From a virus (taxonomy: Duplodnaviria; Heunggongvirae; Uroviricota; Caudoviricetes), in IMG/VR virus record IMGVR_UViG_2563366799_000009: a stretch of DNA of 46,457 nt; one strand, 5' to 3'. A program made the translations under genes and the position numbers. Shown one piece after another: positions 11,351 to 11,683 of the stretch (position 1 is its first letter; every line of letters starts with the position of its first letter). The notes under the pieces were generated by a model. The model was not told where the DNA came from, ran no database searches, and was given only the letters and a program-made list of their open reading frames with translations.

Positions 11351-11380
11351 GAAATAAAAAAACCGCCATGTCGGCGGTTT
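11351..11380 (-). terminator. Intrinsic terminator AACCGCC-GACAT-GGCGGTT followed by TTTTTTATTT
   Basis: Read directly; located inside the tail operon between the tape-measure and gp43-like genes. Confidence 0.6.
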
Positions 11381-11403
11381 ACATATGCACTGAAATGACT
11401 TAT

Positions 11404-11550
11404 CTATTTATCGCTGGATCCATTACGGTCAAGAGATTCGGCGATCCTGTAAAGATGCTCAGACGCCTTGAATGAGTTCATTAGGAACTCATAAAGCACA
11501 CGTAAAAGCAATGCACTTACCACCGATATCGTAATCGCCGTGAAATTCAT
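11404..11550 (-). CDS. Small hydrophobic protein (48 aa from ATG; hydrophobic reading frame continues upstream to 70 codons)
   Basis: MNFTAITISVVSALLLRVLYEFLMNSFKASEHLYRIAESLDRNGSSDK; below the ORF-track size cutoff; weak RBS; followed by the terminator. Confidence 0.3.
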   Translation of the reverse strand: MNFTAITISVVSALLLRVLYEFLMNSFKASEHLYRIAESLDRNGSSDK

Positions 11551-11683
11551 TGAGACAACAGAAAAAACGAGGAAAATGCCAATTACCAGGTAAACAAGCG
11601 CAAAAACCTTTGGAGTCTAAATGGCTTTTGCTCCAAAAACTTTTTCATTCATAACTTCTTCCTTAACGAAATGACGACAGTGA

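Follow-up and report, generated by a model that had tools for sequence, protein, structure and literature searches.

The window analysed here is a 46,457-nucleotide (nt) stretch of viral DNA (Caudoviricetes; IMG/VR record IMGVR_UViG_2563366799_000009) from a lambdoid phage with a Q antiterminator and a Mu-like contractile tail. Between its tail tape-measure gene and its DNA-circulation (circ) gene, which is Mu gp43-like, lies a gap holding a small gene of 82 codons plus stop (11404..11652, minus strand), whose product resembles the DUF4282 family and is predicted to be a two-helix membrane protein. The window's copy carries an in-frame amber TAG at codon 12 (11617..11619), where intact orthologues have TGG (Trp) or, in Escherichia coli NCTC9040 and at loci L030 and L060, TAT (Tyr). 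We suggest that the locus is probably a conserved accessory gene of 82 residues in a nonsense form, TGG having changed to TAG (W12amber). The full-length protein would then be absent from the window phage, and the allele would be null or strongly hypomorphic.

The gene model follows from the arrangement of start, amber codon and hydrophobic frame. All genes at the junction lie on the minus strand, and the gap measures 340 nt counted from GTG 11343, or 343 nt counted from ATG 11340. A preliminary description of this DNA had reported the 340-nt gap and, within it, a frame of 70 codons from stop to stop with two hydrophobic segments and 48 amino acids from its only ATG, at 11550. Gap and frame are as described: translation gives a minus-strand frame open for 70 codons, from TAG 11619-11617 to TAG 11406-11404, and Kyte-Doolittle hydropathy gives the two segments. 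The gene built on them was a different matter, as the real frame has 82 codons with the amber at codon 12. Met58 is a second in-frame ATG, and the start and ribosome-binding site that had looked weak are an artefact of the wrong start, since ATG 11652, with the Shine-Dalgarno-like sequence AAGGAAG at 11658..11664, lies in the same frame on the far side of the amber codon. ATG 11652, AAGGAAG and the hydrophobic part thus share one reading frame, with the amber separating the start from the rest. The alternative offered in that description, a decayed gene, is supported in the form of this single nonsense codon.

The start lies 31 nt past the tape-measure stop codon, and AAGGAAG is identical across all 42 loci of the E. 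coli/Enterobacter type. The window's translation runs MNEKVFGAKAI, amber, TPKVFALVYLVIGIFLVFSVVSMNFTAITISVVSALLLRVLYEFLMNSFKASEHLYRIAESLDRNGSSDK, stop; in the read-through translation the part after the amber begins with TPKVFALVYLVIG and ends with DRNGSSDK. The same AAGGAAG also serves an overlapping ATG in the +1 frame (11646..11648), which in the window opens an open reading frame (ORF) of 21 amino acids (11648..11583). At 11602..11606 there is a run of five Ts (T5), and with one extra T in it (T6) the +1-frame start is brought into the frame of the membrane protein. The 48-amino-acid ORF from Met35 (11404..11550) lacks a Shine-Dalgarno sequence; helix 2 and the invariant core at the C-terminus are still encoded by it. 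It has been called as a gene on 40 contigs (23 + 16 + 1), and the exact fragment of the window (protein P0027) corresponds to DAK02863.1, titled 'DUF4282 [Caudoviricetes sp.]'. PGAP leaves the gap unannotated, in keeping with a loss of function. Two plus-strand ORFs in the gap, of 35 and 34 amino acids, were rejected as genes; they lack homologues, and the selection signal belongs to the minus frame.

That the frame is more than chance is shown by its relatives. Orthologues with 91-96% identity in Enterobacter and E. coli have Trp (TGG) at codon 12, and in NCTC9040, which has Tyr, an 82-amino-acid protein, WP_023157309.1, is annotated at the matching position; this Tyr-allele protein is found on 134 contigs. 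The window's TAG therefore stands against TGG or TAT in same-locus orthologues that are otherwise 96-99% identical, as expected of a pseudogene. Homologues of 56-62% identity occupy the same tape-measure/circ slot in a Citrobacter prophage (L016), in one of Edwardsiella (L024) and on metagenome contigs (L018-L021). Intact orthologues comprise P0001-P0005 and P0030-P0032; the slot is shared by the loci L006-L011, L016-L020 and L024, and the conservation of the junction among relatives, on which the preliminary description had made its reading depend, now extends over Enterobacter, E. coli, Citrobacter and Edwardsiella. Among the homologues of 56-62% identity the codon-12 residue is mostly Trp, with Leu or Ser in three sequences; in the DUF4282 group, at 29-36% identity, it is Ile or Leu. 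Between lineages the proportion of synonymous differences (pS) is 0.66-0.87, which is saturated, against a proportion of non-synonymous differences (pN) of 0.24-0.35 over the whole gene, and of 0.11-0.20 if the C-terminal third is taken alone. Orthologues of 56-96% identity share the slot, and their non-synonymous change is low at a distance where synonymous sites are saturated; these comparisons show that the small gene is real and under purifying selection where it is intact.

Conservation is concentrated in two motifs, an N-terminal FG.K.IWTPK that contains codon 12 and a C-terminal LRVLYEF..FK..EHLYRIAE, and ten residues are invariant over 19 sequences (P14, K15, R51, E55, K62, E65, L67, R69, I70 and E72). 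The repaired window-type protein matches DUF4282 (PF14110) with 22.1 bits (E 2.3e-4), and P0001 with 20.9, both under the Pfam gathering score of 27 bits. However weak singly, the match recurs at E <= 0.01 in all 19 aligned family members, the best at 2.1e-10, and ORF19 of Edwardsiella phage GF-2 (YP_009126622.1), 33% identical to the E. coli type, scores 31.9 bits. UniRef and a third-party annotation record label the Tyr allele and the 48-amino-acid fragment DUF4282. The profile comparisons thus point to a divergent member of that family. A profile search returned 308 clusters (50% identity) at E <= 0.001, mostly stand-alone proteins of 80-110 amino acids, and distant members were found in ordinary non-phage chromosomal contexts. 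The DUF4282-like profile also matches proteins of 500-660 amino acids with four to six tandem two-helix modules (P0070, P0076, P0087, P0097, P0144, P0157).

The small size, the two hydrophobic helices and the conserved N- and C-terminal motifs that characterise DUF4282 are all present. In the full protein, hydropathy places the hydrophobic segments at roughly residues 16-34 and 38-58, and an AlphaFold2 model (mean pLDDT, its confidence score, 78.9) places helices at 3-34 and 37-76, in agreement with the small membrane protein inferred in the preliminary description. The predicted structure is a two-helix hairpin in the inner membrane, with the conserved tail on the second helix. Because lysines precede helix 1 and the C-terminal tail is charged, the topology would appear to be N-in/C-in, with a periplasmic turn of two to three residues.

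The second part of our proposal concerns the place in which the gene sits. In the GC content of its segment, 40.2% against 53% in the structural region, the small gene stands out from its surroundings, and it represents extra DNA relative to close relatives: L003, L004, L046, L049 and L051, whose circ genes are near-identical to the window's, have a gap of 67-68 nt where the window has 343 nt. We surveyed 70 IMG/VR viral contigs encoding a relative of the circ protein. The slot is empty (43-69 nt) in 28 of them, holds the small gene in 29, and in the remaining 13 holds some other single ORF, of 133, 156/165, 188, 234 or 244 amino acids. Contigs whose circ proteins are 96-100% identical show at least five slot states, and therefore turnover of the slot appears to be fast; even those with 100% identical circ proteins differ, some being empty. 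Edwardsiella carries both types, a 188-amino-acid ORF and the small gene. The small gene travels with one variant of the tape-measure 3' end. Taken together, the survey makes it likely that the interval from the tape-measure stop to the terminator-like hairpin described below is a cargo slot, and that the small gene is an accessory gene subject to presence and absence.

The alternative cargo is itself of a consistent kind, in that all of these proteins open with a signal peptide or a transmembrane segment. They comprise at least six unrelated, unannotated ORFs of 244, 188, 165, 133, 156 and 234 amino acids (L052, L054, L061, L063, L092 and L096; also L024 4371-4937). A Pfam search assigned none of them and gave only sub-threshold membrane-protein noise, and PADLOC, given the small protein along with five of the alternative cargo products, returned nothing but a chance-level CorA match on the 234-amino-acid protein.

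The preliminary description had also assigned the small gene a terminator of its own. A terminator-like hairpin is indeed present just upstream of the circ ribosome-binding site, at 11352..11380 on the minus strand, with the sequence AAACCGCCG-ACA-TGGCGGTTT followed by T7 and ATTT; in its stem CCGCC (11377-11373) pairs with GGCGG (11367-11363), and the run of seven Ts occupies 11362-11356. What fails is the ownership. The relatives OW1E2 and AW1.7 (L003 and L004), which lack the ORF and have the 67-68-nt gap, keep the same hairpin and T-run before the same ribosome-binding site, and a GC-rich hairpin lies 10-20 nt upstream of the circ ribosome-binding site in all 70 contigs, whatever the slot contains. 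It is followed by at least five Ts in all but five contigs, all five of them cargo-bearing. The hairpin region comprises 29 distinct sequences, with stems such as CCGCC/GGCGG, GCCCGCG/CGCGGGC, AGCCCCG/CGGGGCT and ACCCTC/GAGGGT. Since every surveyed relative keeps the hairpin, those with an empty slot included, its distribution marks it as a backbone feature of the tape-measure/baseplate boundary. The folding energy of the 60 nt after the ORF is unexceptional alone (z = -1.2), and so the case for a terminator rests on conservation across lineages. An Rfam search over 11100-12000 on both strands gave only sub-threshold, terminator-like matches.

The window encodes a Q antiterminator at 30331..31044 (PF06323, E 7e-40). 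We consider it plausible that during lytic growth a Q-modified polymerase would read through the hairpin, while unmodified transcripts covering the cargo would stop there. That the hairpin is kept inside a Q-antiterminated late operon even when the slot is empty (window 11344-11380; L025-L097) is an observation in its own right.

Morons in the sense of Juhala and Hendrix are recognised by extra DNA, deviant base composition, their own promoter, their own terminator and expression from the repressed prophage (PMC3594210). For the small gene, the extra DNA and the base composition were found, and the terminator belongs to the backbone. A candidate sigma-70 promoter, ATGATA-17-TATAAT, with 10 of 12 consensus positions, lies at 11726..11754 on the minus strand, within the tape-measure 3' end and about 75 nt upstream of ATG 11652. 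By consensus scan, similar promoter-like sites are confined to this ORF type and a single further kind of cargo (L052); the scan, a crude one, found none at the loci of diverged homologues, at most other cargo types or at empty-slot loci. The moron-like insertion of the preliminary description therefore survives as an accessory, low-GC gene for a predicted membrane protein. An insertion read as a recent event is not supported, since homologues of as little as 56% identity share the slot.

Among the 42 loci of the E. coli/Enterobacter type, codon 12 takes several forms that together make an allelic series. TAG with T5 is carried by 27 of the loci, in six haplotypes; five more have TAG with the extra T (T6), three have TAT and seven have TGG. 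The T6 allele is still TAG at codon 12, and from the +1-frame ATG 11648 it gives an 81-amino-acid protein beginning MKKFLEQKPFRLQRFFALVY, which bypasses the amber (P0006; L012-L015 and L097); it is found in Enterobacter and in metagenomes, its 19 contigs coming from separate samples. Between the Tyr allele and the core amber haplotype there is exactly 1 nt of difference over 767 nt. The nearest Trp haplotypes differ at three or more ORF positions. The path TGG to TAG to TAT is favoured as the parsimonious one, since Trp is found family-wide and TGG to TAT needs two steps. If this path holds, the frame would have been restored twice independently, once in the Tyr allele and once in the T6 allele.

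The variants that distinguish the amber haplotypes are four, all of them non-synonymous (F27Y, F27C, T64S and stop83Gln, the last losing the stop codon). This fits relaxed constraint, with the qualification that the variants are few and that F27Y occurs in intact alleles as well. At codon 64 (11461..11463) the window has TCT (Ser) where most alleles have ACT (Thr); its haplotype, amber plus T64S, is common to L035 and L048, and T64S is also present in L050, which adds F27C. Met35 is kept in all amber haplotypes. Two ways around the amber codon were considered and rejected: a programmed frameshift or transcriptional slippage past it, because a run of five Ts is short and AGG-TTT-TTG does not have the canonical form of a -1 slippery site, and recoding of TAG, because the standard code applies in the host, E. 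coli.

When an 81-nt probe was compared with the 22 complete E. coli genomes that have the segment, NCTC9040 alone gave a perfect TAT match. The other 21 have one mismatch in the probe and nothing annotated, and TAG was confirmed at base level in two of them. In the NCTC9040 record (NZ_LR134247.1) two places match the small-gene segment, and the record also contains P0007, which is the Tyr allele with a frameshift; beside L006, also from NCTC9040, the tape-measure gene is split into two ORFs, possibly by assembly indels. In the sister prophage of ECONIH4 (L098), PGAP marks a frameshifted DNA cytosine methyltransferase (11447-13383), as well as an internal stop in a small hypothetical gene (43544-43783), and therefore the small membrane-protein gene is not the sole decayed accessory gene in this prophage lineage.

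What the intact protein does is a matter on which we can offer only a tentative suggestion. It would act at the inner membrane as a non-structural factor, and the role that we prefer, though it is rather doubtful, is a block on genome entry of incoming phages, that is, superinfection exclusion. This guess is based on the analogy with HK97 gp15 and T4 Imm and on the fact that every cargo of the slot is envelope-targeted.

Several observations weigh against this proposal, or against the view that the window's allele is simply inactive. Exclusion requires expression in the lysogen, which is unsupported because no dedicated promoter is consistently detectable upstream of the small gene or of the other cargo genes; it is perhaps expressed late only, along with the tape-measure gene. 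In E. coli most copies carry the nonsense allele (21 of 22 complete genomes, and 24 of 30 IMG/VR contigs of the type), which is odd for a useful gene, and a low-level 48-amino-acid product from Met35, or some amber read-through, may persist in such phages. The model predicts almost no periplasmic exposure and a cytoplasmic position for the conserved tail, which is common to chromosomal homologues; with its best-conserved part predicted on the cytoplasmic side and shared with chromosomal proteins, the fit to a protein that recognises the fast-evolving tape-measure protein is poor. For the small protein neither PADLOC nor a PDB profile search gave any hit, with Pfam giving only DUF4282 and two weak DUFs, and Foldseek comparison of the AlphaFold2 model with BFVD returned nothing at E <= 0.001, the best hit (E 0.14) being among non-specific helical hairpins. 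These searches neither strengthen nor refute the exclusion factor or toxin put forward in the preliminary description. A literature search on small membrane exclusion proteins near tape-measure genes came back empty, and no paper mentioning DUF4282 was found.

The late-expression argument leads directly to the strongest rival, which holds that the intact protein works during lytic growth, from late Q-dependent transcription with the tape-measure gene, and is not a lysogenic-conversion moron. Possible roles include protection from secondary injection, membrane modulation and tuning of lysis. We regard this as improbable on balance but worth serious consideration. The small gene is the last of its transcription unit, 31 nt past the tape-measure stop (the GF-2 version abuts the stop), and no consistent promoter is found upstream of the diverged homologues or of other cargo types. 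Class II holins are small, with two transmembrane helices and a charged C-terminus, and an 82-amino-acid protein with these features resembles them in outline. However, no holin family is matched, the lysis cassette lies at about 27.5-28.9 kb of the window, some 17 kb away, DUF4282 also occurs as a stand-alone chromosomal protein, and a weak promoter is conceivable given the crude scan and the 10/12 site in this allele type. A class II holin proper is not supported, as there is neither a holin family signature nor linkage to an endolysin or spanin.

The preliminary description's own model, an intact moron encoding a peptide of 48 amino acids (or slightly longer) from the weak ATG 11550 and ending at its own terminator, now seems unlikely. 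The ORF exists and is called on the 40 contigs already mentioned; its product would retain helix 2 and the C-terminal core, Met35 is preserved, and re-initiation there is conceivable, since the +1-frame 21-amino-acid ORF ends 33 nt upstream. Against this, ATG 11550 has no Shine-Dalgarno sequence while a strong ribosome-binding site and ATG lie upstream in frame, every intact orthologue conserves the N-terminal motif and helix 1, the terminator exists without the ORF, and the purely non-synonymous variation of the amber alleles suggests relaxed constraint.

To a more speculative scheme we would likewise give little credence. In it, a costly small membrane protein would be switched off repeatedly by W12amber and resurrected by TAG to TAT or by the additional T, which recruits the +1-frame ATG already there, or alternatively the amber alleles would make a functional single-helix product of 48 residues from Met35; the junction would be a hotspot for envelope-targeted anti-phage factors, and DUF4282 would block tape-measure-mediated entry from the cytoplasmic face. 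Finally, a tail-assembly or structural component working with the tape-measure protein is very hard to credit in spite of strict synteny with the tape-measure gene across genera, GF-2 included, and linkage to one tape-measure 3'-end variant, as the slot is empty in 28 of 70 contigs (some with 100% identical circ) and occupied by other genes in 13, the nonsense allele is widespread in apparently complete prophages of about 43-45 kb, and chromosomal homologues exist outside phages.

The genes on either side of the slot are readily assigned. The tape-measure gene (11684..13612, minus strand) encodes 642 amino acids and matches phrog_2276 (E 1.7e-152), with residues of about 393-540 matching endolysin and transglycosylase PHROGs and forming a central lytic-enzyme-like region. 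About 170 nt at its 3' end (11684-11860) have a GC content of 40.1% and form one low-GC mosaic block with the small gene. The circ gene occupies 9937..11349 on the minus strand, including its ribosome-binding site GGAGG at 11349-11345, and matches PF07157 (E 2.8e-30). It more probably starts at ATG 11340 than at GTG 11343, because of the spacing from GGAGG and because PGAP starts the orthologue at that ATG. The tape-measure genes of near-identical prophages (window 11684-13612, L002-L004, L007, L099) are strongly mosaic, with blocks of 100% identity alternating with blocks of 55-75%, and an internal deletion in MLI104K1. A distant-mode blastn search of the junction against 50,697 phage records gave no match.

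The twin prophage in ECONIH4 has an integrase, repressor, Q, lambda-like head and Mu-like tail, and is inserted beside tRNA-Pro and yejM. Elsewhere in the window, a cassette of gtrA, gtrB-like and GtrII-type glucosyltransferase genes (1908-4709, plus strand; PF04138, PF00535, PF14264), a module for O-antigen glucosylation and serotype conversion, lies just beyond a tail-fibre assembly gene (4739-5134, minus strand). In the ECONIH4 prophage, which is near-identical elsewhere, this cassette is replaced by an invertase, an inverted tail-fibre segment and DinI.

The gene itself is an ordinary kind of phage add-on, and the parts worth following are the allelic series and the cargo slot. The natural series of Trp, amber, Tyr, amber with frameshift bypass, and empty slot, on near-isogenic prophages, amounts to a ready-made genetic experiment. 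If the block to genome entry is true, it would give DUF4282 its first function and define a cargo hotspot in Mu-tail lambdoid prophages of Enterobacterales, with at least seven alternative cassettes for unannotated envelope proteins; if none of the functional readings holds, the window carries simply a broken accessory gene. There is also a lesson for annotation, in that a short gene was left blank by the pipelines owing to a single stop codon.

How well the two exclusion proteins serve as models can be judged from their details. T4 Imm, a membrane protein of about 9 kDa, is reported to bind the tape-measure protein and so to block translocation of the genome (bioRxiv 10.64898/2026.03.06.709160); like the protein discussed here it is a small membrane protein of a contractile-tailed phage. 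The Imm model in that study has four helices and a periplasm-facing N-terminus, whereas ours has two helices with both ends predicted to be cytoplasmic, and there is no homology between them. HK97 gp15 is a small inner-membrane moron protein that imposes a tail-dependent block on DNA entry and has bacterial chromosomal homologues (Cumby et al. 2012; reviewed in PMC3594210). As in our case, the gene for this small inner-membrane protein is a neighbour of the tape-measure gene within a lambdoid prophage's tail operon, and close relatives lack it. In contrast, gp15 is YebO-like, with no sequence relationship to the small protein, which has no such Pfam match, and its gene lies upstream of the tape-measure gene with its own promoter and terminator, whereas the small gene lies downstream, with a promoter that is a candidate only and a terminator that belongs to the backbone.

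The closest counterpart is GF-2 ORF19, with DUF4282 and PHROG 12129, whose proteins likewise have about 80 amino acids, two hydrophobic helices, an N-terminal ..TPKI.. and a C-terminal FK..E.L.RIAE. ORF19 lies directly 3' of the tape-measure ('lytic tail protein') gene, abutting its stop, and is followed by a hairpin and T-run; compared with the family, the E. coli type is divergent (20.9-22.1 bits), and the window copy is broken by the amber. Temperate phages also carry accessory hotspots at fixed positions, such as the P2-like hotspots with their anti-phage systems. The tape-measure/Mu gp43-like junction, which we did not find described as a hotspot in the literature, differs from these in that its cassettes are single genes for small secreted or membrane proteins without known defence domains, but it resembles them in its fixed position between conserved structural genes, where near-isogenic phages have one or another of several unrelated cassettes, or none.

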